A stretch of 64,000 bases of DNA from Yuukianura sp. NJ FZ-2021 (GCA_046563655.1 CM102286.1:186001-250000); one strand, 5' to 3'; counted from the stretch's first letter, positions 17,413 through 61,304 are shown. A program made the numbers and translations. The notes: generated by a model not told the origin, from the letters alone.

Positions 17413-19400
17413 TTTAGACAATTTTTAGTATTTTTGTATTTTGGAAATTGAAATTAGTTTTTCTTTGTGAATTGTTTGTAATTTAGTTTTGTATTTTGAG
17501 TGATAGTGTAGTTGTGTGTAAACTGTTGAATTGTGTAGTTATAACTTTTGTAAGGTCAATGTGAGAATACTAATTGTGGTGACCAAGGAGTGGAGTGACA
17601 ATGAATTCAGAAGTGAGAAATACTAAAAACAGGAATGACGACTTACGGAAATCGAGGTGACGACTTCGTTTGTGAGTCAAAACTGAGAAAAATGAGGATT
17701 TTATGCGCATAAGAACCAATTTCACACTGTCATTCGTTTTGGTTCAACAAACACCCATTTGCAAAACTATCTTCCCGCGACATTTCAATCCATCATTGAT
17801 TTCTTCTGAAAAAGAAGAAAACTTCAATCATAATCAGAATGCGAAAAGTAGCTCATAAACAGACATGTCAAAAAATATTTAGTTCCCATGCCTGTAATGT
17901 TCACAAATTCAATATTTCGAGTCTTTTTGTTACTAAATATTTTTTTTTTATATTTTATATTTATACATTTTTATTGTCGCGAACTGTGATGAATGATCCA
18001 ACTTACACCTGCCATTGGCAGGTTGAATATTTATTTATTTATAAATATTTATTTATTTATCCATGCCCAAGTTTGTAAAAATTTAGACCTTTTACATTAA
18101 ATATTGTATTTATTTAAATATTTCGCTGGTTTTTAGTAAATATTTTTGGCGTATCTGCTCATAAATGAAGCTACAAGCAGAGAGCAGTACGCATGCTCCG
18201 AAGACGAAAAAGAGTGAAGCGATGCTGTTTCGCAGGTTGAGTGGAGCGTACTTGAATGTCCGATGCATAAAATCCTCCAGAATTAGATTGGACTTTACTC
18301 CATAATATTTCTGTTGCATAATTCCAGAGTGTTGAAGTGCTAAAAACCGAATGTGAAACCGCTCATCTTTGTCTTCGTCCATTGTATAGATGGTCCAACC
18401 TAAATTTCCTTTTAACACAGATTCATTTCCATAGTACATTTCAATTAACGGATTAAGGCGATACGCTCTCAAATAAAGCTTTTTCAACTCCGACATGTCA
18501 CCTATGAAAATTCTCTTGTCGCAACGTACAAAATCCGTCAGCAGTGTATCATAGTAGTTGTCGGTAAATTGGAAATGCATACTTCGTATCCAACTCTCAT
18601 ATTTTACTTTTGTCAAATTGCCAATGGTCGTTTTATCGTAATTCAAACTGTCATATAGTAGACTTATGAATTGATTGGGTTTAAAGTAGCGTAGGAACCC
18701 AAAGACGTGGTCCGTATTTTCAGTTTTCAACTCCGTTATGCTGAAGCCTTGTGGAAGGGCTTGAGTTATGTCAGTTAGTATTTTGAATTCAAGTTGGACT
18801 GCCTGATCTACAGTTTCAACTGTCTGCGAAGGCAAAGGAGCCGTAAGGTAAGTGGTAACCATTCCACGGTAGTCGTTTGTTACGTGAAAACAACCGAAAA
18901 TCAACGTGTATGCGAAAATGTGGAAAATCCATCTTCGAGGTTTAGACTTCGGCAGTTTCAGTTCCTGTTCAAATACAATGGTACACAAAAACATCCAGGA
19001 CGACATAGATTGTACTCCATCAGAACGAAACCAAAGCTCCACCAGGGGATACGCGGCAATTAGAGTGATGAGGCAACTTATCCAAACCTCGGCATTTAGC
19101 GGTTGGGTATAAAATTGAAGTGAAAAGTACGGGTATGCCCCATCGCATGCTAAAAATTTGAATTGCGCTTCCCTTGTAACATAGTGGTAGTTTCTTCCAT
19201 TATCCGCTAGGTTAAACATGGACGGCGGTGGCATTTGTGCAATATTGTAGTCATTAACAACTCTTACTACATCGTTGTACGATCCTGTCCAGCGGGAAAT
19301 TGTAATGATGAACATTGACCAACTTTCATTTCCGAGCAATATTTGAGACTGGTTATGCTTTTCCGGTGAGAATATTTGGTTCATAATGAAGGCATCTCTA

Positions 19401-20311
19401 CCGTATTTTCCCTAATAGTACACCGTACTTTAATAGTACACCGGGTCCCTAATAGTACACCGGGGTCGGGGCCCCAAAAATTAATTAGTACACCGTCCCA
19501 AATAGTACACCGGGTCTCCAATAGTACACCGGGTATTTGGTCTTTGGTAATACACCCAAGAAGTATGCCCAGTGATGCTGTATGTAAACATCCAGTGGCT
19601 TAATCCATCCGGATACCCAGCAGAATAAATGGGGTTGTAGTGGACGGTGAATGCAACAAATTAAAAATTAGCGAAGTTCAAATAAATTTAAGTTAACTAT
19701 TATAAAATAATTTATTTGCATTTTAAACCGTCTCTTGATATGCGCACCCATTGACGAAATATCGAAAAAGTGGATTTCCAGCAACTCTGAGTATATGCCT
19801 TTGCCTACTGGAAAAGTTTAGCTATATTTAATTAAATACAGTGTTGGTGGATAGATAAAATTCTTCTCCACTTGCCTCAAAAGTGGTGGATATATCCGGA
19901 TTTTCTTGGTTTCTTCCGGACGAAACTCAATTTCGTCCATCTGAAACTGGATTTCATCCGGAGTTATCCATTTATCCAGTGGATATATCCTGTACGAAAT
20001 TCTCAAAAAGTGGATATCCACCAACACTGATTAAATACAACAGAAAAAACATTAATGTTTTTTATATCTTGTTTCTACACAAATAATTCTACAAAATACA
20101 CATCATTTAGAGGCTTCTTTAAAATTTTTGCAAGCAAAATTCGAATATTTCTTGCGTAATTTCAATGAGAGGTTAGTAAAAAATAATATGCTTTTTGGAA
20201 AAAAGAATTAATACACCGTCCCTAATAGTACACCAGGTCCCTAATAGTACACCACCCCCAGAAGTCGAAAACAAAATTAGTACACCGGGTGTACTATTTG
20301 GGAAAATACGG
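19401..20311. mobile_element. Non-autonomous Tc1/mariner-superfamily (pogo/Tc2-type) MITE, 911 bp
   Basis: TA duplication at 19399-19400 and 20312-20313. TIRs CCGTATTTTCCCTAATAGTACACC / GGTGTACTATTTGGGAAAATACGG, with several subterminal ATAGTACACC repeats at both ends. Confidence 0.92.
19839..20029. mobile_element. hAT-type MITE, 191 bp, nested in the pogo/Tc2-type MITE
   Basis: Perfect 15-bp TIR CAGTGTTGGTGGATA / TATCCACCAACACTG and perfect 8-bp TSD ATTAAATA (19831-19838 and 20030-20037). Confidence 0.92.
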
Positions 20312-21873
20312 TATGTGGAATGGTTCTCTCGCTATCTTCATATATACTATACAACACTATGTTAAACTGGAACTTGTAGTAGCACCTATCGCTCATTGTA
20401 AATTCGTGAAATATTTTCAAAAAACGACGAATTGATGCATTAGTGATTAGGTGATTCGGAACATCCGCTGTCACCACGGTGTCACAGGGATGATGCACAC
20501 TGTCGTGTATTCTATAAGTAGAATTTAGTACTTGAACCTGGTAGTGGGTTTGAAACGTGTACAAGAAACGGTCAAGTAGTTTCGCCGGCAACAACTCTTC
20601 ATGGATCCAAATCACATGAGATGCAACACCGCGGCAATAAGGAATTCCAACTCGTTCATCCGTGTATTCGCACTCATATATCCAGCGTAGATCAGCGTGC
20701 AATTGTTTTGTCCAGTTTATCCACGGGTACAACTGAATGACGTTGAGATGACACAGGAGTCTGCGCGAATAGCGTGTAAAGTTTAACTTCTGAAATGTTC
20801 TAGTAGTCTCCTCCCTTTTGTCATAATGTAGGGAAATTAGCGTTACAGGAGATATTGTCATTTTGTCAAAGTCAAGTACTCTGTTAGTGTTATTTTCCAA
20901 AAAGAAAATGAAATTGTCGCAGTTGTGGAAGTCTTTTACCAGGGCAGTAGAGAAACTGACTACGGAGCAGAATATTGGCAAAATTGTAGTTTCAATTGCT
21001 AAGACGAGGACAAATATTGGGCGATACATTTTCCAAGACTACTACAGTAGAAATGATTCGGAATTCCTCATTGGCCTTCGTGTTCAACGCTGTTCGAGTT
21101 TTGTCTTCGGAGAATACCTAAGTTTGCATAACTGTGGTAATGGCTTTCTTTTGTAATAGTGAATTTGTATTGTTATCAGAATCAAGACGATTTGAACCAT
21201 GTAAAAAAGTTGTTATCCGAAGATAGAAAAACTTAAGTCTGCTTTCGGGTGAAAACTTCTGTTAAATATCAAAAAAAGCGGTTGACTAATTATTAGCTTC
21301 AGCACGTTCTTCACGATAGCGTGGATTTGAAATAGTATATTGAACCGTTCACGTTAAAATTGTTCGTGTTCAATCGATTACAAATTGAAATAGTTCACGG
21401 TGCTTTGGCCAATTTTGGTACACGTATTCGTGTAGCTACTTTTGGTATTTTTAATTTGAAAAGAACTTTTAGAACGCCGTATTCAAGGTCCTTGCGTGGA
21501 GTTTCAAAATATTCTACACACGTATCCCTTTTCTCTGCTTAAATTCTTAATTTTTAATTGCGACCCGATTATAATGTTTCCATTTCTATTTTTTTTAAAC
21601 CAGGAAAGATATTCATTACTTTTCCATCACAAATGCTATTTACTTAGAAATATTTTAGTTCTTCAAAGTATGCCAACACAGTTCAATAAAGTGGAGGGAG
21701 TAACTATTGAAAAATTACTTTCTACTAAAGAAACCAAAAGAATTTTCTTACGTGTCAGTTTTACTTGCGTAACCATTTATTTACTCCTACATTTTTTAGA
21801 GTTGAAAAAGTACGAAAAAGAGACGTCGAGTGAAGATGGTTCCAAAGTTGTTTTGATTAATTTCTGCTTCTCA

Positions 21874-22353
21874 TTAATTCGGAGGAATGTGGACCCTGGA
21901 AAACCAGAAAAACTAAAATTAGTTTTTTAAAACCTACTGCTAAAAAGTTAAAAAAGTCAAAACTAAGAGTTTTGGTCATGTGGAGATGAGAGTGTAAATT
22001 GCTTACTCTCCGAGGCCGACGCCCATGTAGAATGGATTGTTGATGGCTTCGAGTAGTTTGGCGTCCTTGGGTTTGAACTTTTGTGGTCCACTGTCGTAAG
22101 TGTCGTGGTACAACTTGGAGTGGAAGTTGTCCGGTCCCTTTTCACGGTGCAGTCGGTCATTTGCGTCTGGAGTGATGGTCTCATGCATGTCCACGTCTTC
22201 CTTGTTCTTCTTAACGCAGCAGCAGCACGCAAGAAACTTCGCACAGCATCCCTCTTTCTGCGCACCCTCAGAGTTACGGCGAATCGTCTTGTTAGACTTC
22301 ATGCTCCGTTCGTTGTTGATTCCAGATTTCGACTTCACACTGTTCGTAGACAT
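21874..22353 (-). CDS. Small protein (~122 aa) with a Cys cluster (GCCAKFLACCCCVKK), probably palmitoylated; function unknown
   Basis: Exon 22353-22007 ends GGA GA|gtaagc and joins acceptor ttccag|G at 21895 to give ..GLGEVHIPPN* (stop 21874-21876). Confidence 0.6.
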
Positions 22354-22497
22354 CTTCTCAATGGCCACTTCAAATCCACCTTCCTTTTACTTATTCTACC
22401 ACTTTCTTAAAAGTGTGACAAAAACAATGAAAAGCGTTCAAAATTGAACGAATTTAACTACTGTTTTGAATTTGGCCTTAAAAACATAGTGATTCTT

Positions 22498-22567: not shown

Positions 22568-25500
22568 TCAGGATGTTTGGTCCAACTCCAGAATTTCAAA
22601 TGCTTGTGCCAACTCTTCCTAGAATTCAAACGTTCATGTCAAAATATCAACAAATATTTTTGGTCCGTCAAATTAGGTAAATAGAAACATAAATTTTACG
22701 TAAATTTTACTTAGTTTACGTCAAGGTAGTAAACGTATTTTTTACCTTGTGTTGTCTGATGTTTGTGTAAGCAGAGTAGACCCAGTCAACAATTTCTTCC
22801 GTTGAGGGCAGCACTATCTTCGTTTTGGAATTGGTTTTACTCAAAAACGAAGACCAGGCCTCCTCCATCTTTTTCTAAAAAAAAAAACAATCTGAATTTT
22901 TAAAAAACACAACTAAAAAAGCGACAAGTAGAAAAGTGTTACTAGAAAGTTTAGACGGAAGAAGACATTGATTGGCTGGAGCTTGGCTGCAGTGCCCAGC
23001 GGGAACTTTAAATCCAGCACATTCATTTCCTCACACTTCGACTTGATTAGCGGATTTTGATGAAGGTCAAACGAATCCCAGAGCATAAGAAGGTCAAAGG
23101 TCACGGGAGTGAACTTTGACACGTTTTGCTGGTTGACCTTTTTAAAAACGAGGTCAAACCATTTCAAGAAACTAGTTTCAGTGGGTTCTGTACTCGACGA
23201 ATAAAAAACTAGAATTTCAGTGTCTTCCTTTGTGTATGGATATGTTTGGTCCATGTCCTTCGTATTTTCAGCCTGAAATTTTGAAATTTAAAAATATTCA
23301 AAATTTCAAAACTTTCAAAATTTCATTTTTTTTGCGGCTAACCTTGACGATTACCATGGGGGGTAAAAGTGTTCCGTCAGCACGAGTGGCCACAATTACA
23401 GTCGCTTCGCAGTCTTTGATTGACGGTCGTCTAAGCCCATTTCTACTCACTGTGTGACTTTGACCTTGACCTTGCGTGGACACTGACGATGTAAAGGTCA
23501 CCGGAATCTCGTCCAGGCAAATGATTTGGTCTTTTCTGAATTTATACTTCGCCAGCACATTGGTAAGGTCCGATTTGAATTCCTTCACTCGAAGTTCCAG
23601 CTCCTTTGGCAGCGATTCCTCGCAGCGTCCTTCCCAGTTGAGCAGAATGTAATTTCTGTTGATGAAGCGATGAGCCCAGTGCGCAGAAGCCACAAAGGAT
23701 GGTCGCATGCTGGAGATCAAAGTTTGCGCAGTTTCCTGGACACTGGACAGAGTTAAACAAATATTGTTGTCAAACTGCTCCAAAATCCAAGTCAGCACGA
23801 CTGGATCCGCATCTTCGTAAAAGTTCCGAGTTTTCCCGAACCGCACCGACCATCTTCTGTACCATCCGTACGAACATTGAATGTTCTCGTGACCTTTTGA
23901 CCTTAAAAAAAAACAGTTTTCAAATAATTTTTTTTTGAATTTTTTTATTATTACCTGTAAAGTTCCAGAGCCTTGTCTCTGATTTCCTTGCTGGTTGATT
24001 GGAGTGGTAGACGTGACATGACCCAGTCATGGACTTGTCTCTCCACGTCAATGTCCACTACTTGTTTGAAAGATTGGAGAGCAGGTTCGGGTTGACTCGA
24101 ACTGGCGTCCACTTCTGGCATCGCATTTAAACTTGAAGTTGAAGTAGACGCGGAAACATTGGCAGACGACTCGTCGCTCCCAGCTGAACTTTGACCCACC
24201 CATTCACAAACGCGACGCTGAGAAAGTTCAAAAAGTCTCGCAGTTCGTCGCTGGCCAAGAACGCTCGCGAATTTGGCAATTTCAACTTTAAACTCCGGCG
24301 GATACTGAAACCAAAAAAAAATTTTTTTTTAATATCCTCAAACTTTTTTAAATTCACTACTGCAAAAGTACCACTTTGAACAACGACCTATTTCAAAATA
24401 AAAATAGGAAGAATGGATACCGTAATTAAAATATAAATAAAGTATTTATTTTGACCTCATGCAAGTATTTGGCAGTATTCTCAACTTTTGGAAGTACTTG
24501 ACAGTATTTTAGAACAAGTTGATAAACTTATAACTTTCTGATGAACTAATTAACTAATTTCTGAGTAACTAATGAACTTAAATAGTCAGAATTTTAGAAT
24601 TGAACTTTGCTGTGACCGAGTGAGAGAGCCTTCTCCGCCACTTCAATTCTCTCCTTCAGTTTGCTCTTGATGGGTGGATCTGTGAAGATGAGCGGCGTAG
24701 TTACTCCCTCCGGTGTGACGACTTCCTGTTCGTTGAGCATGAAATGGTTCATGAACAGCTTGACGCTGTCTCTGAACAGACGCAGTTTGTCAGACAGACC
24801 AGGCTTAGTAAAAACGTCTTCCAACTCGTCCTTGGTCGACCGGAGCAGGATTCCACCAAGCACTTCCTTCAGAAAGACCAACTTCCAAGGCGGCATGTCA
24901 CCAAAGTCAATGACTTTGAGAACAGTCAGGGGCAGACTCCTGTCCTTCACGAGGTGGATCAGCAGCTCTGTCAAGTTTTTCAACTGATGTTCCTCGGGAA
25001 CAGGGAACTCCTTCAGTCTGTCCCAAAGTGTATACTGCGTCGTAAGCTAGAAAACACAAAACATAAGAAAATTCAGCGAATTTTGAAAATTTTGAATTTG
25101 AAGAATGTTGAATTTGAAAAATTGAAAAGTCACCATAAAACGTCTATCGAGTGAGCAGAATTTGGATGCGAGGAGAGCATAGTATGGATTGAACTTCTTT
25201 TCGTGGAGACAACAGTAAATTAAAACGTGAATAATTTCCCGTTCCAGTTGATTCTTGAGTCCCAGATGATTCAACTTCTCAAAAGCATCTGCATAGTCCT
25301 GTTGTCAACATCAAATCATTTTCAAACTCTAAATTCAAACTTCAAATTTTAAAAAAATCTCCAAATTTTAAAAAAGTAGACAAATGTCACCTCTGCAGTC
25401 ATGAGGATAAAGAAAATGTTCCTTCGTGTGTCTGTGTTCATGCCGAGTTTCTTTGCTTTCTTCATCAGCTTCTTGTTGCCAAGCGCAACAGCAACAGATT

Positions 25501-28500
25501 GACCTGATTGGTCCATTGCTGCTTTGTCATCACTGGATCCAGATACTGCCAAAGTATTGCCAGTATTTGTCCAAGCAGATCCCAAAATCCACCACCTTCC
25601 TCTAGTATCCGCTTCAAGAAAAATAAACATTAAATTGAATTCAAAAAGTGTCGGAGATTGTTTTTAAGCTTACCATTTAGTAAGTCTTGCAAAGAAATCT
25701 TGAGTTCAGAGACGTAGTTCCCCTTGTGAATGAAAGTTTTCATAATTTTTTGTAAATGGTCGCCAAAGGACGGATCGTAGTTCGGAATCTTCGTCATGTT
25801 GTTGTTTCGTATCGCCAGAAGAATCTCCAACATGAACTTCACTCTCGACCTGAAATTCACAAACAAGAATGAGTTAAAAATGTCAAAAAAAAAGTAATAT
25901 TTTGAAAATGTGTAGAAATTGACCCTTGGTTATCGGTTTGTGCTTGAGACGCTTTTTGCTGAAGCAATTGAATCAAACTTTTTAGAGCTGCTGGATCGTC
26001 CTTCCTCAGGCGAAATCCAATGCTTCTCAAAATAGTTAAAATTAGTTCCACATCTTTCGGTCCAAAAGAGTCCCCGAGTAATTTGAGAACGTCGTAAATG
26101 AGGCAGCAATCCACAATCTAAAAGAGAATTAATCAATTGAAATCAAGATTCAAAGGTTAATTGACTTCAGTGCTGATTGAAACTTAATTATAGTTTACCT
26201 TGAAATGGTACATGTATGAAATGATTAGGACTAAATTCTCCAGTTCCTTTCCCTCGGTCTGTTCCTGGTTAGCAGTATTTTGTTGGTATAATTTATGAAA
26301 TTGGTGAGTGAATGACTGGATAAAGAAAGCTCCCACTTCTGTTCCAACATTTGCATGTAAAATCCCAATGAGCATCACATGTTCCAGAATGATGCGATCC
26401 GAATTGAGAATGGGCGAAACCAGAACGGCCGACATGAGTTCCAGCAGGGTTTCGTTCATTTCGTTCCGACTGTTCTCCATGTAGAACGATTCTATCTGCA
26501 AATTTAAAAAGTAACAACATCTTTGGAAAAAAATAGCATTGTTTTTAGCACTTGGAAAGAAAGTCGTACCTGAGTAGCGATGCTATGCATGTTGCTCTCT
26601 GAAAGACGATTGAAGAGCCCTTTGAGTGATTTCTTGATCTTGTCACTCTTCTGCGACTGTCGTTTCATTGGTGGAACGTACTTTCCAGTAGAAGCGGAAG
26701 GAGTTGTGGAAACAGCTGATGCAATTTGAATATCCTTGACCTTAACAAAAAAAACACAACTTAAGACTCATTTTTTTTTAATAATTAAAGCACAATTTTT
26801 TAATTTTGAATCACTTACGACGTTTCCCTCCTTGTCTCTCATCCGCCCGTAAATATCCTCCCAAAACTCGGAATCCTTCTCATTTTTTGGTTTCTCCTTC
26901 GGTGATTCATCACTAGAATCCAAATCATCACTATGATCATCAGCAGCATCATCCTCACTATCTTCCTCAGCATCTTCTTCGTCTAGCTGATCTTCCAGGG
27001 GTTCATCGTTTTCTGAAAGATCTTCCTCATGACCATCTTCATCTTCACCGTCCACTTCCTGCTGATCTTCCTCTACATCCAGTTCGTCAGATGACAAATC
27101 TATGTCATCTTCATCAACTTCTTTATCTTCCTGGTCATCTTCAGAGTCTTCCGATCCCAAATCAACACTCGCATCATCAGGTTCTTCATCATCATCCTCT
27201 CCCTCTGAAACTTTCGAAAAACGTTTTGCTTCTTTTTCCGATTGTGCGTCCACAGAATCCTTCTTCTTATCCAAGTCGTTACAAAAGTCCAGCAAATCTG
27301 TCAAAGTACGTAAATCATTTATTAAATCCCGAAAGATGGAAACTTTTGAAACGTATTGTGTTGTGCGTACCACTACCACTTACAATCAAGACCGTCAACA
27401 CGGAAGGACGCTGGAACCTGTGCCTTTTTATTCAACTTGAGCTTTTTCTGAAGTGAACGAATCGTCCTGTCCTCTTCATCGTTGTCTTCCACCATTCTCT
27501 TTTTCCTCACTTCCTCCATTTCCAGTTTCAATTTGTCTACTTCCATCTTAAGTGGAACTGAAGCGTCATAGTCACTTTCAGATCCACTTCCCTCAGTCAA
27601 TTCTTGAGTGTCCCTTCGATTGCTTTTCATCGGAGCTTTGTCTTTGGATTTGTTCTTTTTCTTCTGCTGTCGTCGCTTCTTCTTCGGCACTTCAACTTCC
27701 TTTCCAAATTTTTTGAGCAAAAAAGTATGCTTCTCCGCCTTCTTCATTTTCCGTTGTTCCTTCCGCAGTTCTTTCCGGGTTTTAGGTGCATCAGGGTTAC
27801 GCTTTTGCTTGAAGTTTTTCTTGAAACTACGGTGACCTTGACCTTTCCGTTTGTGAGGGAGTGACAGCGACACTGGGTTGCATTTCATGATTCTCCTTGC
27901 ACTGTGTGTCAATACTTTTGATAAATTTAACCTTCTGGTGTAACTAATTGTAACTTTAATTAAGAAATAAACTTTAATTTCATTCTTATTTTGGAAAAAC
28001 AACTGTTGAAAAGTTAAAACAGAAAACATGTGCTTAGTACATCACATGTTTGGCAAAATGCAATTCATTTTGCAGTTCTGGAATGGCAATTGCAAATTTC
28101 ACCCTCGCCCCAGTGTTGTTATTCACTGTTTTGCAATTGCAATTGGCAATAGAGTCAAGCGTTTCAGTCATTGGCAATTCAAATCTGACAGTATTGCAAT
28201 TGCCAATCAAACAAAAACAAAAACAAGAAGCTGTGAGTGACTATTCCTCAGAATCGTTGGTTTGGCTTTAGCAATAAAATTGTGATTTGTGAATTTCTTA
28301 AATTTTAATTACCTTGATTAATTTTGGGACTGGAATGAGATCAATTAGATGTTGCATTGTTGAATCCCTGTCATCGTTATAACTCGAATCGTGTAGCCGT
28401 TTTGTCCAAGCCGCCGTCCAAGATTCCACTAAGTTCCTCCGTTGTCCAACTTGGTCCGACCCTGACCCGTTACTGCTTGTACTGTCACCAATTGATTCAT

Positions 28501-28990
28501 AAGCCTCTTTGAAAAGTGTGTTGATTTGTCTGGATAAGCCGCTTGTAGTTGGAGGTGAAATGTCACTGGATGATTCATGTTGACACTTCTCCAGTTCATA
28601 TCTTGTCTTCTGTAATAAATTGAGAACTTTCTGTTCAAATGAACACTGTGATGGATTAAGCAGTTGCTGCGTAGACTCTTGTCCAAGTCCACTTGTCTTC
28701 TGTTCCATTAGTCGTCGTATTTTCGTTTGTCGTTCATCAGCCCGAACCCAGTCAGACACTGTGTTGGGATGGACATGAAAAGTACGAGCAGCTGTTACCA
28801 TGGTCACCTTTACTTTCTCCTTTGTCGCTTGGGTTGCTGTCGATACTTGTGCGTCGTCTGAGCATTGTCTCATGAAATTGAGCACTTTGTCCTTGAACTT
28901 TGGCACGTAAATGTCAGTGGCCTTCGTCAACTTTCCGTCGTAGTCGCTACTACAATACGTCGGAGTTTGGAATCCACTCGATTCTCCCAT
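22568..28990 (-). CDS. Domesticated pogo-transposase-derived protein (POGK/Tigger-like): 2 Brinker/psq-like HTH, 2 CENP-B/Tc5 HTH, degenerate DDE_1 domain
   Basis: Exons 28990-28313 (YVPKFKDKVL..AARTFHVHPNTVSDW), 24304-23955 (YPPEFKVEIA..RRTARLFELSQRRVCEW), 23901-23343 (CSYGWYRRW; FVASAHWAHRF; IICLDEIPVTF), ~23272-22943 (LWDSFDLH; LQPINV), ~22874-22746, ~22618-22568. All junctions are phase-compatible and no TIRs were seen. The exon 1 to exon 2 join is inferred. Confidence 0.72.
24594..27888 (-). CDS. NOM1: Nucleolar MIF4G domain-containing protein 1 (NOM1/Sgd1)
   Basis: Multi-exon. Basic/acidic N-terminus, SFRVDGLDY, EDIYG, KYVPP, LKGLFNRLSESN (MIF4G), LRKDDP, SRVKFMLE, RGRWW.LGSAW, MNTDTRRNIF and MA3-type EKKFNPYY motifs. 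Confidence 0.93.
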
Positions 28991-29298
28991 TTTCCTACAA
29001 CACAAACAAAATTTATAAAAATCATAAAAATTAAAATAAAATGAGATTAAAACTTACGATAATGACAGCAACTTCTCTAACTCCTTTCTTTGGTCTGATT
29101 TGTTAACATTGACAAATTGTTTTATTTTGAAGTTTTGAATTCTTTTTGAAAACTCCCACAATTTTGTCTCAAATAGAACTGGACCAGGGATGTCTTTTCT
29201 ACATTTTCTGTTTCTACACGGATAAATGGTATAGAATTTACTGTAAACTGTGTAAACTATTTTCAATGGAAGTTCTCTCTAAATTAAGAGTTTCACTT

Positions 29299-31594
29299 TT
29301 ACAACTCTTCATGTAGACGCTTGTTACTCTGCGGATTGTGGCAGGCCGTTGGAGTGCTGAATTCAAACTGGTATTCGCAGCGAGAAGGCTCCACGACGGA
29401 CAAGACACGGTTCTCCAGTCCACAACTCAGCAACACCTAAACAACCAACTTCAAATTACAGAAAACATCCAAAATCCGGGAGTTTGAAATGTATGCAGAT
29501 AAAGTTACCCGGGCGGATCGTGCTGGTCCATTCCAGCAAGACTGTCCTTTGTCGTACAGCATTTGACCATACTTGTTCTCTTCTCCTCCAGACCACGACC
29601 CCCACCGACCCAAACTCACAACTCCTCCGCCATTCTTCCCTCGCTGATTCGACTGAAACCACAAACAAACATTTAATACTTCTCCAATAAGTTTCAACTG
29701 GGAACAATTTCAAAAGTTAGAAATGAGAAGCTGATTGGTTGAGAATGGACTTACGTCTTTGAATGGACACAGAGTGTAGACGTACTCACGATCTTCGTAG
29801 TCGAAGCAATGGCCGTGTAAAGGAGAAAATCTGAAACGAATTAATAATAAATAAATTTTACATGAATCAGTGAGAGGCAAAATAAAATTGACGTCGTCGG
29901 TCTTACAGACAGACAGACGGACAGAAATGCCGTTCTTCTTTTTGGCAGAAACAAATTCCTACCTTTCGTCATCTCCAAAATCAAGGTTGAGGATGTCGTT
30001 GACTTCCTGGAGTTTGTGGGAAACATCACGAAATACTTTGTCAGCCTCCTGAAACTCGCTTCTCGCAATATCAGCAGCTGAAAGGAAATTAAACAAACTC
30101 AAATGAAACAACACGCAGCTATACAATAGTTATGGAGGATTTGGGGTACCTCGGATCAGTTCCATTGTTCTCTCGTCGTACTTCGGCTTATCCGATTCAG
30201 GCACGACATTATCCTTCCCTACTTCCAACTTCTGCTCTTCCTCCTCCTCCTCATCGTCAAAGTCGTCGTGAGCGTGATCGTCTTGGTCTTCTTCTTCTTC
30301 CGGTCTCTCCGTAATACCTTCTGTCTCTTCTGCCACTTCAGGAGGCTGTGTTTGACTCGGGGGAGTAAACATTCCTCGCTCCATGAGAAAGTAAGGCTTT
30401 GCCAGTATCCAACCACTCTTCAAAAACTCATCTCTGCTCATCTCTTGTTCTAAATTCAAAAAGAAAGAAGCTTCCTCTTCTGACACTACGCCGTCCTTGT
30501 CTCGATCGAAAGTGGAACGGGCCTAGGACAAACAAAAAAAATTAATAAGCAAAGAGAAAAACAAAAAACAAAGGAATATTTGGTTTCGTTTTTCAAAAAT
30601 GTGTCACTGCTTACTTGAATCTCTGCTACGCCGATGACTCCATCACTATTCGAGTCCAACAGCTCAAACATTTCAATCGCTTCAACCTCCACACGCCCTT
30701 TTTCTTCTTCATCTTCTCTTTTCTTCCGTTCGTCTTCTACTCGCTGATACTCTGCAAGTGCCTCTTTTTCTGGTGCTTCTGCCTCGTTCTTCACAGTTTC
30801 CTTTGAAGTCTTCTTGGCTTCAGCCTGTTTCAATTCAGCTTCCAGTCGACTGCGCTCCTCCTCCTTGGCTTGACGACGACTCTTTCCTTCAGCGCTCATC
30901 TCGAGACGTTTCTGGTAGCCATCTTTGATGAGACGAGCAGATCGTTCTGCTTCTTCACGTGCTGCACGACCCAATTCGTTACATGTATTCGCACAACTGG
31001 ACTCCATACTCTCGTCACTACCATCGCAACAATCTGAAAGTAATTCCTTGTGTTAAGTCGGAACTAATCAAAGATCAGCTGAATCGAACGTAAAAGGAAA
31101 AATTTACCACAAATTCCATCGTTGACTCGAGAAGACTGAAGAAAGGAAGAGACGTGACCTGCATTTACGCAGAAGAATTGACCGTTATTGCAAGCTGCCG
31201 TACCCGGTTCATCTGAAAATGAATCCTCTATTTAGTGAAGTTTGTTTCAATTGTTTTACTCTTGTTTTAGGTGGACTAAAGTTTAAGCCTGACCACTTCC
31301 ATCAGGACAGTCGCAGTAGTCGTCGTTGACGAAGGAAAAGGGAATCAACTTGGATCCATCGAGGCACATGAAGTCCTTCTGAGGGTCATACAAAGCAGCC
31401 CCTGCAAATTAAGTTAGTTAATTAAACTTTAGTTGGTTGTCAAGTTAGGATTTAATTGTTTTGTGGTCCTTACTTGATAAAGGGACTCCTCTTGGAGTGT
31501 TAAAGTTAGCTGAGATGAGGAAGTGACTGGACAGAACTCCGAGGAGACCAAGGAACGATAGGCTCCCCCACACGCACCCATTGTCCACTCCCAT
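29299..31594 (-). CDS. PRKCSH: Glucosidase II beta subunit
   Basis: Signal peptide, [20 protein letters not shown] and [14 protein letters not shown] motifs, EF-hand (LDSNSDGVI), acidic tract, MRH domain ([18 protein letters not shown]), and C-terminal ER-retention HEEL*. Confidence 0.95.
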
Positions 31595-35970: not shown

Positions 35971-38900
35971 TTAGTTGTAGCCGAACTTGGGGTTGTTTCT
36001 CACTCCGAAAGGCAGAGAAGGGGCTCCATAGAGTCCCGGTGGGAGCGTTGGTGGCTCCGTTGTGGTTCTCTGGGTGGGGCATCGTGGGTCGAAGCTACCT
36101 GGGTAGCATCGTGGTGCTTGAGTGGGTGGTGGTGGACATCTCGGATCAGCGGATCCCGGGTAACAGACTGGTCTGCTGGTGGTGGGTGGTGGGCATCGTG
36201 GGTCTGTGCTGCCCGGGTAACAACTGGGTGGGCATCGTGGGTCGCTGGATCCTGGGTAGCATCTGAATGGTGGTGGTGTGGTGGGGTAGCTGCCTTGAGA
36301 GTCAACCTGTTCTTCGTCCTCATCAGGGCGGGAAGTGGGTGGGACGTATGGGGGGCGGGTGGTCTGTTGTGGGGGGAAATAGGGCGCTCGGGTGGTCGGT
36401 GGGGCGACGTATGGTCTGGCTTCACCTTCATAAGTCACTTCAGCATTGAATCCGTTCTTCCAGTCAGCAGTGTACCTAAAAAACAAAAAAAAAGGTTGAC
36501 CTTTGACCTTGTTTCTTTAGCTGACCTTCCCCAGAGGGGCTAAATGTCAAATACAGCGTGGATGACATGAGCTGTGGTAGCCCATTTTCGAATTGATCTA
36601 TTCTTCGGGACGTTTTAGAATAGAGCCTGATAGCTCAAGGGTTAGAGCTCTTCCTGGAGTAAAGAGTTCTAGGTTCGAATCCCACTCGGTTCTTTATTTT
36701 TTTCTACACTTTTGGTTCTTTGTGTTTCAAACTATACGAGCCATGAACCTCACAGCAGTTGCATTTGGAAATGGAATGTGACAAAGTGGCACTTACTTGA
36801 CAATTTGCATACGACCATCAGCCATAAGTGTTCTGTACTCTCCTATAAAAATGTAATAAAATTGGAGGGAGTAACTAAAATGCTCTGAATGTTTGGTATT
36901 TATGTTGACAAGTGACAACTAACTAACTAAGTGCCTTACCCTTGACGACTTCGCCGTCACTGTCGGCCTTGTGTGCAAAGTCATTTCCAAAGTCATCTTT
37001 CACTGCATAAGTAAAGTCGTAAGGCATTCCGGGGGCATGGTCTTGATCCTAGAAAAAAAAACAGAATTTGAAAAACGTTTAAAAACACAAAATTTCAAAA
37101 AAAAAATCGGGAAGTGGAGCTAGACAGGTGACCTTGCGCCGAAGAAGAAGCTACTGGAATTCCTTGACTTCTCATTAAAAATGAGACTTTGAAAAATAAA
37201 TGAGTGTTGTCAGCGTCTGCGCACTCCCACTTGTCGGAATGAGTGATGGTAGGGAGGCTGTGAGTTTGAAATGTGTTCAAGTGCTCATCTTCTGCCTAAT
37301 TTCCCAATCACTAATCAATTTCCAAATTGTAAATTGCAATTTGCAATCTTACTCATCTTCCTTCCGCGTTCTACCACTGTGCCATTGAGATTTGGGGTGC
37401 GCATGCGCCACTAAGGACACCAACTCATCTTTTCCTACTAAATCGTGCTCAATTTTCTCATTTTTTTGTAAATTCCGAAGGAGAGCTAATTGAAATGTAG
37501 AGTAAATCAAATGATTTGAGGAATTACATGGACACAAACATTTCAACTTTTTAAAAAGTTGTCCAAATTGTATCAAAGTGACCTCAGAAACTGGTTCTCT
37601 TGCGTGTTTTTTTTTCATTTCAAAATTTGAAATGACATGATGGAATTATTCTGGAGGCTGAGCATGCGTCATGGAAAATTGTTAGTTTGTGGCGGAAATC
37701 TACAAAACGTTTTGAAAAGTGATTGATTTTTAGCAACTGTTGTGATTGATTGATGGTTTTCGTGTAAAGTCTAAAGTAATTGTCGCTTCTGCGCAACTGT
37801 TTTGTTGTGTTTGAGCAACATTGGATAACTCAATAGTTGGAGAGATGATCGGAGTGTAAAAATTGATTGCAGTTTCCAATCACTTTCTTGGCGCTCTTTC
37901 TTGAAAATCGTGAAATCCACAATTTCGTCAACCTCCAACTGCTCATCGTTTTTGAGCCAATTGGGAACACGACCAACAAAAATTTAGCGTTGAAAAGTTT
38001 TGAGTGGCGCCAAGGGCCCAAGGGCCCTTCTGTGAACATGACTTTGAGGAAGTTTTGATCGGCAGTGGAAGGAGACAAGTCAAAGTCTCCAATTTTTCAT
38101 ATTTTTTGTGCGAATATTTTGCAAATGAGGATTGAATTAATTTGGCATGTGCCAAATAATTCAGAGACTAATGCAATTAAGTCATTGCGCAACTCCCGCT
38201 GTCTCAATGCTCCTCATGAGCCAATTCCATTATCAAATGTGGGTTTCATTCTTTCCAATCTTAAAAGATCAATTTTTTAAGTTTTCAAGCTCATTTCACC
38301 ATTTATTTTTTGTTTTGGCGCTCATTTCAACACTTTTGGCTCAAAAGTGGTTTATTTGCTGCTAAAGTGATTCAGAATTTGAAATTGTGAATTAAGTGGT
38401 TTATGGAATTATGATTTTTATCGGTGGAATGATGCCATGGACAGCCTGTGAATCGTTGGGAACTGGCGCATGTGCAGAAGGCAAAATGCACAAGAATAGC
38501 CTCTTTTCATTAAATTCTAAACAAAGAGTGGGAAAAAGTGAAACTGTTTCTGGTTCAGCCCAAAGGTTAAACACTTTCAGAGTTGTTGACAACAAAGAGT
38601 CGCTGTGTCCGCTTTGTCAGAGGAATGGGGTCGCCTCGTGACCTTCCATTCCACTGGAGGTCGGACACTTCTGCCTCATCTACGCAATGTCATCTCGTCA
38701 AGCCAGTTTCGCACAACACCCAAAGCGACATGTGACACATTTAGATCAACATGTCTCTTCACACTTCAACTACTAGCCTGTGGACCAATCACAACCTCGC
38801 AAAATGGACCAATCGTAGCTCTTAAAAATGGACCAATCAGAGCTCTTCAGAATGCTCCAATCAGAGCCGTTCTAAACGAACGAATTGATGGACTTTCGAA

Positions 38901-54800: not shown

Positions 54801-55827
54801 TGCAAGAATAACGAGTGAATTTTAATTCTGAGTTTGGATTACTTCAACCTCTGACATATGTTGGTGTGGTGCGTTAAAAATCGAATTATAAAATTGAATT
54901 TATAATTTATAATAATGCACATAAAAAAAAATGAATTTGTACGAATCAAAACAAATACAAACCCAGATAGGCTCTTTTTCTACTTCGTATATAATATTAT
55001 ATTATATTATTAATTTTTATTATTCTTATTTTGATTTAATAATTCTAGTCTATTTTTCATATACAATAATATTATTGTTGTAATACATAATAGCCTCAAT
55101 GGTATTTTTTTTTCGGGGAATGTGTAAACGTATGAATTTTCAAATGACGGAATTTCCCGCCGTATATTTGTTGGGGTTGCACAAGCAGGTCCACATCACC
55201 CCCGCTTACCCGATCCATCGCATATGGGCATAATTAAACAATTAAATTAAATTCTGGTGGCAGCTGGAAGCTAGGGACTCGCTAATCCTCGGAATCCTCC
55301 GTGGTTTTCAGTAAGGAGTTTTTTTTAGTGCCTCTGCCTGCTGCTGATTAATTCCATTTTGACAGGTTGGATGTTTTGAGAGGTAGTCATTTGCACTGCC
55401 GGGATATCATCATCATCGGGTCATCAATCTCATCTGGCCATCTCCACACTCGCTTATCTTCTCCTGTTGTGGTAAGGTTAGTAACAATTAGTCACCCCCT
55501 TTGCTTAATTAAGTGACTCACACGAAGACTACAGTTTGGTTTTGGTCTTTTAAACTGACATTGACAGCCTGTCAGTCATAAACACTCAAACCACTTTTCC
55601 CTAATTTTTTAGGTTCTGGAACCGTCGGTGACCTGGGTGTAACCAAAGCAAAGCTGGAGAAGAATTCAGAAAGTACTAAAAAGTAGTAAGTGACAGTAAA
55701 AAGTAAGATCTTGAACGATGTTTTGATAATAAGTGACTCAAAGTCTTTGTTTTTAGTTGACCAGCCTACCACCATAACACGACGGAAGGATCATCTGACG
55801 ACTGGCATGTAACTTAGGCGATTGACG

Positions 55828-58800
55828 ATGGCCCAGCATTACAGTTTATATACGACCGGATCTCGGATATGGATTCACGAAAAGGAGCGATGGAAGAGCG
55901 GTGTAGTTTTGGCAGACTGCGATGGCAAGACACTCGCGTACAAATGCGACGACGATGGAACGTCCAAAGTCATTAGCTCGTCACCTCTACAACTTCCACC
56001 TCTACGAAATCCAGACATTCTGATTGGTCTGAATGACTTAACATCCCTGTCATACCTCCATGAACCCGGAGTACTTTTTAACCTAAAGTATCGATTTACG
56101 GAGATGAAGACCATTTACACTTACTGTGGAATTGTGCTGGTGGCTATCAATCCTTATCAGAAAATAGGCATCTATGGAGTGGAGACAATGTGGACATATC
56201 GGGGTCATGCCATTGGGGAGTTGGAGCCACATGTATTTGCAGTAGCCGAAGAAGCATTCAAGGAAATGGAACGGTAAAAAAATGTCAAACGTTTCTGAAA
56301 CGTTTTTCATAAAAATTGTTTTCTTTTGCAGGGCATCGCTGAATCAATCGATAATCGTTTCCGGAGAAAGTGGTGCTGGGAAAACAGTATCAGCGAAGTA
56401 TGCCATGCGGTATTTTGCTACCGTGGGAGGTGCTGAATCAGTGACAAGTATTGAACGGAAAGTACTCGCTTCGCAGCCAATCATGGAAGCTATTGGGAAT
56501 GCCAAGACAACTCGAAATGACAACTCAAGTCGATTTGGAAAATATGTCGAACTTCAATTCAGTTCCATTTATTCAATCATGGGAGCCTCCATGCGAACTT
56601 ACCTTCTGGAAAAGTCTCGCGTTGTGTTCCAGGCTCCAGGTATAAGTTTAAATCCAAAAATCGAAATCATGAAAACGTTTGTTTTTGTGTTTGAAACGTT
56701 TATTTTGCTACAGGAGAGCGAAACTATCACATTTTTTATCAAATCCTGACATCTGAAGACGACGAAGTATCTGATCTGTCTCTTCGATCAACATCTTTCA
56801 ACTACACCAAGACAATGACAATCAAAGGTGTCAATGATGCCAGTCAATTCACAGAAACCGTTCAGTCCATGAAACTACTAGGATTTGGAATCGATGATCG
56901 TCGAAACTACTTTAAACTACTCGCTTCCATTTTGCATCTTGGAAATATCGTGTTTGAGCAAAAAGATGAAGGTTGTGTCATCCCCATGCCTTCAACTCCA
57001 CTCACAGTTCTCTCCAACCTCCTCTCCATTTCTGCCTCGGAACTCATCAAATGGCTCACTTTTCGGCGAATTCGATCCGCTCATGAAGAATTTCTGAAAC
57101 CAATGACCGTCGTGGAAGCAGAGTTTTCGAGAGATGCTTTAGCCAAACTCATGTACGACCTCAGTTTCAACTGGATCGTGGACAGGGTCAACGAAACTCT
57201 CAAAAGTGATGAAGAATGTTTCAAGTTCATTGGAGTTCTGGACATTTATGGATTTGAGACGTTCGAGGTCAATTCCTTTGAGCAGTTTTGTATCAACTAT
57301 GCCAATGAAAAGTTGCAACAGCAGTTCAACTCCCACATGTTCAAACTGGATCAAGAGGAGTACGCGAAGGAGTCGATTGAGTGGACTTTCATTGATTTCT
57401 ATGACAACCAACCCTGTATTGACCTCATTGAGGCCAAATTAGGCATACTGAGTTTACTAGACGAAGAGACGAGGATGCCAGCAGCTAATGACAAGTCATG
57501 GACCATGAAACTGTACAAAGAGTGTGCGAAATATGCCCATTTTCATACGCCAAAGAGAGCTGATGGAGAGGATTTTACTGTTGCACATTTCGCAAGTGAG
57601 GTAAGTATAGTAAGTAAGTAAGATAGCATAGCAGGTCATTAGCACGAAAACAATAAGCCCGAATTGAGCAATTTGGCAACAGTGGAACTGAATCTGAGTA
57701 GGTTTCATTGGTAATGTAGGTTCAGTGTTGCTGACTTATGGAATTCGCGTTTATTGTTTTCGTGCTTATTGTTTTCGCTCTTAATGTTTTCCGTACAATT
57801 ACATGGAACCTTATTTTTTCAGTAATCATAAGGTGTTGCTTTGACTATTAGCTTTGTAGAAGACTAAAATTAATCAAAAAATGATTGATGATTTACGACA
57901 TCACGAATGATAACAATTGTCATGCTTTTTTTTTTTATAGGTGAAGTACACGAGCAGTGGATTTTTGGAGAAGAATCGTGACACTGTCTTGGCAGATCAA
58001 ATTCAGACAGTCAAGAATTCAACAGTGAGTTTACAAACTAAAAGAAACTGAACAGGCAGACTGTTTTAAGTTTTAGTTTATTTACTTCGTTTGTTTGTTT
58101 GTTTTTTTGCTTCCAGAATCCTTTCATTGCCTCGATCATATCCATTGACACTTCGGCAGCCAGGAAGAAAACAGTTTCAACTCAATTCAGATCTTCCCTG
58201 ACTTCACTCATGACTTCTCTCAATTCTACAACTCCTCACTACATCCGTTGTATCAAACCAAACGACGACAAATTGCCATTCCAATTCGAAGATTCTCGTG
58301 CTCTTCAGCAACTTCGTGCTTGCGGTGTTCTAGAAACTGTAAGAATTCAGGCCAGTGGATTTCCAACACGGTGGACTTATATTGACTTTGCAAAAAGATA
58401 CAGAGTTCTCTGCAATTCAAAAGAAATTAAACGGAATGACCTCAAGGCCACTTCAATCGGAATCCTCCATCGAAATATCACGGACTCATCCACCTACAAG
58501 TTAGGCACAACAAAAATCTTCTTCCGCTCAGGCGTACTTGCCTTTTTAGAAAAACTTAGAAGTGCCAAGTTGCACGCCTGCATTCTCCGAGTTCAAAAAA
58601 CCGTGCGTGGGTGGCTGGCAAGACGACGATTTGCAAAGATCAAGAGAAGCTGTGCTCTTTTGCAACGATATGGGCTTGGCTTCTTGGCTCGACGACGGTT
58701 TCTGTTCATGCGTCAAACCGCTGCGGCTATCAAGATCCAGAAACAAGCGAGGATGTACATCATCCGCAGAGATTACGTCATGCTGCGGGATCTTGTTTCC

Positions 58801-61304
58801 AAATTGCAGACGCATTGTCGCACTTATCTGGCGAAGAGAAAGGCCCAAGCCCTCCGCGTTGAAAAAGCGACCATCACAATCCAGAAAAACGTTCGGATGT
58901 TTCTGGTCAGAAGGAAGTACGAGAGAATTCGTCGTGGAATTATCCTGCTCCAGTCATGCACGCGAAGATGGTTGGCCAAGCGGGAGTTGAAGACGCTGAA
59001 GTTAGAAGCCAGGAGTTTAGAGCATGTGAAACAACTGAACAAAGGCCTGGAGAACAAGATTATTGAATTGCAGTTGAAAATTGAAGGTCAGACGAAGGTC
59101 ATGCACAAGTCGGAAGCAATGGCAACTGAATTGGCAATATTGAAAAGTCAAGTGACACAGTTGAAACAACTGGAAGCTAAGCACAAGCAAGCATTAACGA
59201 CGATCGAGACACAGGCAGCAAGTATATTGAAGTTAGAGTCCAGTTTGAGACAAGAAACCGACGAAAAAGTGGATTTGGTTTACAGAAACAAGAAACTGGA
59301 GGGAGATTGTACCGATTTCAAAACGCGGCTGAGTCGGTTGGAAGCAGACAATTTGAAAATGGAAGAAGAAATTAAGAAACTTATGCAGCAACTAACTGGA
59401 TTCAATAATTTGAAAAACGATTACGAAACGTTGGAGCGGGAAAGAGACGAAGAACGGATGATCGGGCGAAACATGAAACCGAACAAAAACGTTCCGGTTC
59501 CTTTACCGCGTGTGAAAGCTCCACCTCCGACCGATACTTTTGTTAATACACTTCAAATTGAAAACGCCTTACTTAGGAAGAAGTTGGACGAAAGTACTTT
59601 GGATATCTTGAAATTGCATGACCTTGAAATGCAAAATGAGCAAGCACAGGCCAATTACAAGAAGTTGATGCTCAGTAAGAGTCCGAGTGACGAAGTATCT
59701 AGATTAGTGAAACAACAAACGGAAGAACTCGGATTAAAGAGGGAAGAAAACTTGATGCTGCGGAGTTTATTGAGTACTGGAAACAGCGATCGTGAAATCA
59801 TAACGACTTTGGAGCAACAGCTGACTGCTGAGAAACTGAATGTGAAGCATCTCCAAGAAGAGAACAAACGACTTCGTGGTTATGCTGGAAAGGAAGAAGA
59901 ATCTTCAGTTTACGAAACGGCAGCATATGAACTGAATAGTAATAGAATGCTGAATCATTCGCCAGCATCTTATACTGGATCAGTTACACAGATACTGCCG
60001 AGGAGAGAGATGTCGGTGGAGAATTATACTGGATTGCTCCAGTATGAACCTTCAGCTGAGCATCGAATACTCAAATCAATCTTGGTGGATTTGAAACCAG
60101 CGGTGGCTCTCACTCTGGAACCACCAACACTTCCAGCATTCATTATCTTCATGATGATCAAGTACATCGATTCTATCAATGATGACACGCGACTTCAACC
60201 ACTTTTCAAAAGTTTTGTCAAAATGTCAAACAAGGTAAAAATTTACAAAAATTAGGACATCACCGTCTGGCATAAATTCTATAATTTCTACAATTCTAAA
60301 ATCCTATAACTTCTATAATTTCTATAATTCATTTATAACTCAAACTCCCTAATATTGATATTTTTTAGGTGATACAAAAAAGAAATCAACTGGACTACAA
60401 CTTTCTGTGGCTGAGCAACGTTTTGCGTCTTTTACACAATCTGAAGCAGTACAGCGGTGAACCAGCATTTGTACGAGAAAACACCGCCAAACAAAACGAC
60501 CAATGCTTAGTCAATTTCGATTTGATTGAGTTTCGAAAAGGCCTAAGTGACATCGGACTTCGGTTCTACGTCGGTCTCATCAAAAACTTTGAAGACCTCG
60601 TGCAGCCCCTCATTGTGCCAGCAATACTCGAATCAAGTCCAGAACTATCTTCTGCCATGGTCAACTCCAAAGACAAATCAACTTCCATGGAGAAACTCAC
60701 GAGAGAACTGACACTCAACTACGATCTCCTCACTAAATTTCAAGTAGATGCAGAAGTAGTTGTGCAAATATTCAGACAAGTATTCTACTACCTCACGGCA
60801 GCATCCATGAACAACCTTCTTCTGAGAAAAGATTTGTGCAACTGGACGAATGGATTACAAATCAGATACAACATTTCTACGTTAGAAGAGTGGTGCAGAG
60901 ATAAAAATCTGGACTCGATTATTCCGATTCTTCAGCCGATTATCCAGGCCAGTCGATTACTCCAAGCCAACAAGTCGGAGAAAGACGTGGACTTTGTCTG
61001 TGAAATGTGCGATGAGTTGACAGTGAGTCAAGTGATCAAGATCCTCCATCTTTTTACGGCAGATGAAGAGGACCTCAGGATTTCACCTTCGTTTATTAAA
61101 CAAGTGCAAGAGAAGTTGAGTAAGCGGAAGGCTAGGAATACTGAGCGGAATGCTGGAGATACTGCGGAGATTCCGCAACAGTTGCTCATGGACACCAAGC
61201 ATCTACTGCCGGTCAAGTTTCCCTATCACCCCTCAAGCATTAAATTAGAAGAACTCAACATTCCAGACAGCCTCGGCCTCAACGACTTGGTCACAAAATT
61301 GTAA
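55828..61304 (+). CDS. Myo5: Unconventional myosin V (1592 aa; motor, 6 IQ motifs, coiled coil, DIL domain)
   Basis: Exons 55828-56273, 56332-56639, 56714-57600, 57941-58024, 58117-60234, 60369-61304, all in phase. [34 protein letters not shown], six IQ motifs, and DIL domain ([19 protein letters not shown]). Confidence 0.95.
57631..57810. mobile_element. Second copy of the 53.3-kb inverted-repeat element, in myosin V intron 3
   Basis: Arms AGCACGAAAACAATAA / TTATTGTTTTCGTGCT; internal TGGCAACAGTGGAACTGAATC is the reverse complement of 53381-53401. Confidence 0.65.

Follow-up and report, generated by a model that had tools for sequence, protein, structure and literature searches.

The stretch of DNA considered here, 64,000 nucleotides (nt) from Yuukianura sp. 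NJ FZ-2021 (GCA_046563655.1, CM102286.1:186001-250000), is referred to as the window, and all positions are counted from its first letter. The DNA is eukaryotic in character, with about 39% G+C and short introns that begin with GT and end with AG. Two genes of its minus strand are the subject of this report: a pogo-derived gene, modelled with six coding exons between 28990 and 22568, and a gene for a protein of the NOM1 family, which lies between the first and the second of these exons (Table 1). Both of the exons that flank NOM1 encode a predicted helix-turn-helix (HTH), and we consider it likely, from comparison with related sequences, that they belong to one gene (hereafter the host gene), in whose first coding intron the whole of NOM1 is nested on the same strand.

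In the host model, the joined frame is open for 699 codons, and the phases of all the exons fit. Exon 1 ends in TTAATCAAG|gtaatt (AAG|gtaatt), with 28313 as its last base, and exon 2 follows the acceptor tttttttggtttcag|TATCCG, with 24304 as its first base. These coordinates, and the phase 0 of both donor and acceptor, had been given in a first-pass annotation of the window, and all of them were re-derived from the sequence. The same annotation had stated that the exon at 24304 has no ATG of its own; indeed, its first methionine is residue 62 (Met-62), past the conserved HTH. An upstream extension of exon 2 was rejected, being blocked by in-frame stops 8 codons upstream, and so was an additional ATG-bearing mini-exon, as a search for ATG...GT mini-exons of phase 0 in the 289 nt between the NOM1 stop and 24304 returned no candidate. 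A protein that started within exon 2 would therefore lack the conserved HTH of this exon.

The NOM1 gene is contained entirely between 28312 and 24305, with its ATG 424 nt past the donor of host exon 1 and its stop 289 nt before the host acceptor. Where an entire same-strand NOM1 with its own ATG, introns, stop and AATAAA had previously been described between the host exons, we found an intact gene of nine exons with GT/AG borders, encoding 886 amino acids (aa) without any internal stop. The MA3 domain is recognized by Pfam with E 2.8e-13 (50.2 bits), and the MIF4G domain on two exons with E 6e-6 and 2e-5 (26.5 and 24.7 bits), each score remaining under the whole-protein cut-off of 30.8, since the domain is divided between exons. 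A search with the MA3 exon gave 43 matches, and every descriptively named one is a nucleolar MIF4G domain-containing protein 1. When PDB was searched with a NOM1 exon, CWC22 scored below a 928-aa 'MI domain-containing protein'; PDB sequence searches with exons 4 and 9 gave nothing informative, and an Atlas search with exon 9 returned generic MA3-linked clusters and nothing more specific. The NOM1/Sgd1 family has a role in ribosome biogenesis. The window gene shares with this family a long charged N-terminus, the MIF4G domain and the MA3 domain near the C-terminus and, differing in nothing notable, looks like an ordinary ortholog.

Table 1. Predicted features of the host gene and of NOM1 in the window (strand: -, minus;., unassigned).
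Feature	Position	Strand	Remarks
Putative non-coding host first exon	29058..29100	-	ATC|GTAAGT donor at 29057, from sequence only
Putative 63-nt intron of the host 5' untranslated region	28995..29057	-	Inferred; GTAAGT...TTGTAG borders
Host coding exon 1	28313..28990	-	ATG at 28990; 678 nt, 226 aa; first psq/Brinker-like HTH; phase-0 end
Host intron 1	24305..28312	-	4,008 nt; holds the entire NOM1 gene
ATTAAA just past the donor of host exon 1	28304..28309	-	Speculative; might end a short, unspliced form of the host mRNA
Four copies of TTGCAATTG[GC]CAA-like palindromic motifs	28083..28206	.	Candidate NOM1 promoter element
NOM1 exon 1	27384..27888	-	ATG at 27888
NOM1 exon 2	26819..27297	-	Acidic region
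NOM1 exon 3	26570..26740	-	
NOM1 exon 4	26199..26495	-	MIF4G, first part
NOM1 exon 5	25924..26117	-	MIF4G, second part
NOM1 exon 6	25674..25849	-	
NOM1 exon 7	25391..25611	-	
NOM1 exon 8	25134..25298	-	MA3
NOM1 exon 9	24594..25046	-	Stop codon 24596-24594
NOM1 poly(A) signal AATAAA	24445..24450	-	About 140 nt before the host acceptor
Host exon 2	23955..24304	-	Second psq/Brinker-like HTH (YPPEFKVEIAKF...); phase-0 start, no usable ATG
Host exon 3	23343..23901	-	HTH_Tnp_Tc5 and start of DDE_1 (first Asp, D473)
Host exon 4	22943..23272	-	DDE_1 (D595, N631)
Host exon 5	22746..22874	-	Alignable to relatives
Host exon 6	22568..22618	-	Carries the stop codon

The 699-aa host protein has two putative psq/Brinker-like HTHs, an HTH of the Tc5/CENP-B type and a DDE_1 domain. 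The last two are recognized by Pfam in the region of exons 3 and 4 (HTH_Tnp_Tc5, E 1.8e-10, 41.1 bits with a cut-off of 22.2; DDE_1, E 3.7e-6, 27 bits with a cut-off of 22). The likeness that the first-pass annotation had seen between the HTHs of the two flanking exons was sustained in part: both are conserved in relatives, but the Pfam match to BrkDBD is weak in exon 1 and in exon 2 alike (13.4 bits each, under the cut-off of 23.4, E about 0.08). One relative (P0012) carries PF09607 in a precomputed domain table. A complete DDD triad is not present; the putative triad ends in Asn and has a gap of 35 residues between its last two members (DD35N), the placement of its columns presuming the QPLD motif. 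Asn at the third position is also found in Orchesella (QPLN) and Allacma (QPIN), and Asp in the louse Menopon. The coding sequence is interrupted by five introns, relatives occur in springtails and insects, and the NOM1 neighbour is common to Allacma; the host is probably a domesticated gene for a pogo-derived DNA-binding protein, immobile rather than a transposon.

That the parts on either side of NOM1 belong together is suggested by the relatives of exon 1. A HMMER search with this exon against 1.84 billion representative sequences (threshold E <= 0.001) gave 10 matches. Two of these, P0007 and P0011, were taken as spurious, being internally repetitive proteins; the other eight share the motifs of exon 1 and comprise seven short open reading frames (ORFs) of 190-285 aa and one protein of 709 aa (P0006), annotated in the springtail Orchesella dallaii and present in NCBI/UniRef. 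Judged by these homologues, the ORF of exon 1 is more than a product of chance. The 699-aa model and P0006 align as a single colinear high-scoring segment pair (residues 28-690 to 30-704, 32% identity, E 2e-112), in which exon 1 corresponds to residues 30-245, and at the junction KLIK|YPPEFKV of the model faces LKRIS|YPPSFKE of P0006, with no exon missing or extra. The O. dallaii genome is described as annotated with Funannotate, with the use of transcript evidence derived from RNA-seq (PMC12693562). Moreover, proteins of the louse Menopon gallinae and of the mirid bugs Lygus hesperus and Apolygus lucorum show the order HTH1 - W..W.KR - HTH2 - Tc5 HTH - DDE. Because the joined model is colinear with P0006 across the junction, and because the same domain order recurs in three insect proteins, the two flanking parts appear to be one gene.

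The splice positions point in the same direction. In an alignment of exon 1 with seven single-exon relatives, Val-Ser or Val-Thr, with Val encoded by GTN, directly follows the position of the exon end in six (the exception being P0010), as a read-through of a GTAAGT or GTAACN donor would give. The one contig found by a profile scan with alignment A2, a metagenome contig of 1,588 nt (L001), has CAT|GTAAGT at the end of exon 1 and stops 66 nt further on, too early to show the content of an intron; a profile scan of genome contigs with alignment A3 gave no match. On the other side of the intron, a 361-aa ORF (P0001) has FQ|YPANFKKE, in which FQ corresponds to TTTCAG, ahead of the Tyr-Pro with which exon 2 begins in the window. 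In the aligned sequences, then, a phase-0 donor after exon 1 and an acceptor before 'YP' are conserved among relatives.

The first-pass annotation had also proposed gene order in related species as a check on the nesting. The best match of the NOM1 MA3 exon is a predicted protein of 1,278 aa (P0015) from another springtail, Allacma fusca, with the domains MIF4G, MA3, HTH_Tnp_Tc5 and DDE_1. NOM1 residues 120-884 of the window align to its residues 57-788 (49% identity), and residues 226-694 of the pogo model, starting from the last residue of exon 1, align to its residues 801-1271 (42% identity), the two parts being linked by some 12-13 residues that have no counterpart in the window. We read this protein as the merger, by a gene predictor, of two adjacent genes on the same strand. 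The alignment places NOM1 directly upstream of pogo exons 2-6, on the same strand, in Allacma as well; since a part similar to exon 1 is lacking, it supports the gene order, and neither the 28313->24304 join nor any location of exon 1 in Allacma. A third species may provide a further indication. A 209-aa ORF (P0003), of all the relatives the one most like the window over the second half of exon 1, runs on past the exon end and, 45 codons beyond it, reads LIISYMSHFKV. In 10 of 11 residues this is identical to the end of NOM1 exon 4 with its donor, at 26228-26196; a tblastn search of the window gave E 0.09. It hints that in that species, too, NOM1 sequence lies behind exon 1 in the same orientation; the ORF may stem from a nested NOM1 in decay, from a chimeric transcript or from an artefact of assembly. 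With the NOM1-pogo order found in a second springtail and the intron position common to several relatives, the nested layout is apparently old.

The nesting of NOM1, on the same strand, within an intron of the pogo-derived gene, as the first-pass annotation had it, is thus supported by a protein that spans the junction, by the domain order in insects, by conserved splice sites and by the order in Allacma. Some points weigh against it. Use of the 28313->24304 junction is something that we infer from homology, and both P0006 and P0015 are gene predictions. P0015, moreover, joins NOM1, and not an exon resembling exon 1, to the pogo part, and has no first HTH. Finally, GTAATT makes a weaker donor for the host than does GTAAGT, with which several NOM1 introns begin, and the AATAAA of NOM1 lies about 140 nt ahead of the acceptor of the host, so that full-length host mRNA may be rare.

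The flanking parts could instead belong to two or three separate genes, with exon 1 as a stand-alone unspliced gene for a 230-aa HTH protein and exons 2-6 expressed on their own, or through read-through from NOM1, starting at Met-62. The ORF of exon 1 does continue for four codons past the donor, to a stop after KLIKVIKI, with ATTAAA at the same place (Table 1), and the database sequences related to exon 1 are mostly short ORFs, albeit single-exon calls; in mammals, hosts are known to be polyadenylated prematurely, upstream of the genes nested in them, according to a survey of such pairs (PMC11694760). However, the second HTH would be left untranslated, despite its conservation in Orchesella, in Allacma, in the P0001 ORF, in the louse and in the two bugs, and this arrangement fits neither the donor conserved in six of seven relatives nor the presence of both parts in the O. 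dallaii protein. A short HTH-only isoform of the host, which the stop and the ATTAAA would allow, is speculative, and it may coexist with the full-length form rather than replace it. On balance, separate genes seem improbable. Rather improbable, too, is that exon 2 is fed by NOM1, in a conjoined or read-through gene encoding a NOM1-pogo fusion protein such as the Allacma model depicts. Five of the eight NOM1 donors (at the ends of exons 2, 3, 4, 7 and 8) are in phase 0, and hence in frame with exon 2, and only about 140 nt separate the NOM1 poly(A) signal from the acceptor; but neighbouring genes on one strand, when close together, are often merged by ab initio prediction, the linker of the Allacma protein is without counterpart in the window, and all the other NOM1 matches with MIF4G and MA3 (484-988 aa) are devoid of pogo domains. 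The first HTH, although conserved, would be left as an orphan, and a fusion, where it arises, could be a minor by-product.

The position of the acceptor, about 120-140 nt past a poly(A) signal in a tract of tightly packed genes all on the same strand, recalls the geometry of nematode operons, and would suit a downstream gene whose acceptor at 24304 receives a trans-spliced leader (spliced leader, SL), perhaps one that supplies the AUG. The nearest relatives, however, are springtail and insect proteins, and we know of no SL trans-splicing in hexapods. The orthologous P0006 has exon 1 sequence directly before its 'YPP', the downstream cistron would have no in-frame methionine before residue 62, which the conserved HTH precedes, and an Rfam scan of the window detected no SL RNA and no family at gathering score. 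We regard such an operon as barely conceivable. Separate genes, the NOM1-pogo fusion and the SL operon would each leave a conserved HTH untranslated or orphaned. It would also be very improbable that the arrival of NOM1 broke the host and that one or both halves are decaying relics: nothing speaks directly for this, apart from an incomplete catalytic triad (DD35N), whereas the six exons are open with GT/AG borders intact, DD35N is common to Orchesella and Allacma and fits domestication rather than decay, and the layout is common to Allacma.

If NOM1 is indeed nested in a single host gene, a polymerase starting upstream of 28990 would traverse NOM1 and ignore the AATAAA at 24450, and the spliceosome would join the 28312 donor to the 24305 acceptor, bypassing eight donors and eight acceptors of NOM1. 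Coupling or opposition of the two genes, which the first reading of the sequence had suggested, would follow logically from such a layout. NOM1 itself would most likely be transcribed from a promoter of its own in the 424 nt that separate host exon 1 from the NOM1 ATG. In this interval lie four of the six matches to TTGCAATTG[GC]CAA in the window, where 0.49 are expected and none of 100 shuffles reached six, and inverted repeats were detected at the cluster, which is a candidate element of the NOM1 promoter. The frame of the NOM1 ATG is also open for 51 codons upstream (27889-28041, within a minus-strand ORF at 27373-28041), and near 28004 an acceptor-like caacag| shares the phase of host exon 1, so that a chimera of exon 1 with NOM1 would be in frame; this path is probably due to chance. 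It is unlikely, though worth stating, that exon 1, NOM1 and exons 2-6 form an ancient transcription unit of springtails, with obligatory co-transcription of the two genes. The output would then be set by a contest between long-range splicing of exon 1 to exon 2 and the splicing and 3'-end formation of NOM1, and in-frame chimeras would be possible, given the phase 0 of exon 1 and of five NOM1 donors; the Allacma model and the P0003 ORF could be taken as hints of such mixed products. If this were true, the dosage of a transposon-derived DNA-binding protein would be tied to a gene for ribosome biogenesis.

The locus is of practical interest for annotation, because predictors tend either to split such a host or to fuse it with its guest. 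In view of the fusion in Allacma, and of the relatives of exon 1, which are mostly orphan ORFs, annotations of the domesticated pogo gene are probably wrong in many genomes of springtails. Moreover, with an inner poly(A) signal so close before the acceptor, the locus would offer a compact natural system in which splicing over a complete, active gene is set against intronic polyadenylation. No paper on the pair formed by NOM1 and a pogo-derived gene was found, no literature search dedicated to the pair having been made. The locus opens no long-standing question; same-strand nesting is already known, and what we describe is a tidy but ordinary example of it.

As for the surroundings, the upstream neighbour of the host (29298-31100, minus strand) is a gene for a glucosidase II beta subunit-like protein (PRKCSH-like, Pfam E 1.9e-7, under the cut-off) that ends in HEEL*. 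Just past its AATAAA (29126-29121), at a distance of only some 20-70 nt, comes the putative non-coding first exon of the host. With so short a gap, three to four genes on the same strand follow each other with hardly any space between them. Directly past the host stop, a small gene at 22003-22386 (minus strand) encodes a basic protein without Pfam match, whose cysteine cluster CCAKFLACCCC we take to be palmitoylation-like. Further on, between two long minus-strand ORFs without Pfam match (20277-21038 and 18110-19411), an insertion of about 915 nt (19399-20313) resembles a miniature inverted-repeat transposable element, with 26-nt terminal inverted repeats that are 96% complementary (19399-19424 and 20288-20313) and, inside it, copies of a subrepeat of the TAGTACACCGGGTC type. 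The plus strand carries a myosin V-type gene with long exons at 55813-61304 (Myosin_head, IQ, DIL) and, at 36622-36694, the sole tRNA gene of the window, for tRNA-Ser (GGA).

Among known proteins derived from pogo transposases, the host may be compared with the vertebrate POGK and POGZ. Pogo transposases are reported to be of the DD29-56D type, with DD35D in POGZ and DN35D in POGK (PMC7386202). POGK and POGZ share with the window protein the HTH_Tnp_Tc5 and DDE_1 domains, the 35-residue gap between the last two members of the triad, the presence of introns and conservation across species, and POGK also has an N-terminal HTH of the Brinker type (PMC7386202). The window protein differs in having neither KRAB nor zinc finger, in its two putative psq/Brinker-like HTHs and in its DD35N triad, and its gene, which belongs to a hexapod lineage, is not orthologous to those of vertebrates; where the Lygus protein is called 'POGZ', the label was assigned automatically.

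With regard to the arrangement of the two genes, same-strand nests in Drosophila are fewer than opposite-strand ones. The first-pass annotation went too far in holding that most nested genes are antisense: for host/nested pairs of mouse and human, the bias towards opposite orientation is described as only slight, same-strand pairs being nearly as frequent, and nested genes favour 5' introns (PMC11694760). As in same-strand pairs from that survey, a complete protein-coding gene here occupies a host intron in the same orientation, and this is the first coding intron (PMC11694760); but mammalian nested genes lie in long introns, while the intron in the window measures 4 kb and is almost filled by a nine-exon gene (424 + 289 nt left). 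A second parallel is the cholinergic locus, where VAChT is nested in the first intron of ChAT, an arrangement that is conserved in nematodes, Drosophila and mammals and gives two mRNAs by means of multiple promoters and alternative splicing (PMC3053374). The position in the first host intron and a long evolutionary conservation are features that the locus in Yuukianura appears to share with it (PMC3053374); VAChT, however, is a single exon functionally tied to ChAT, whereas NOM1 has nine exons and no evident tie to the pogo-derived gene that surrounds it.

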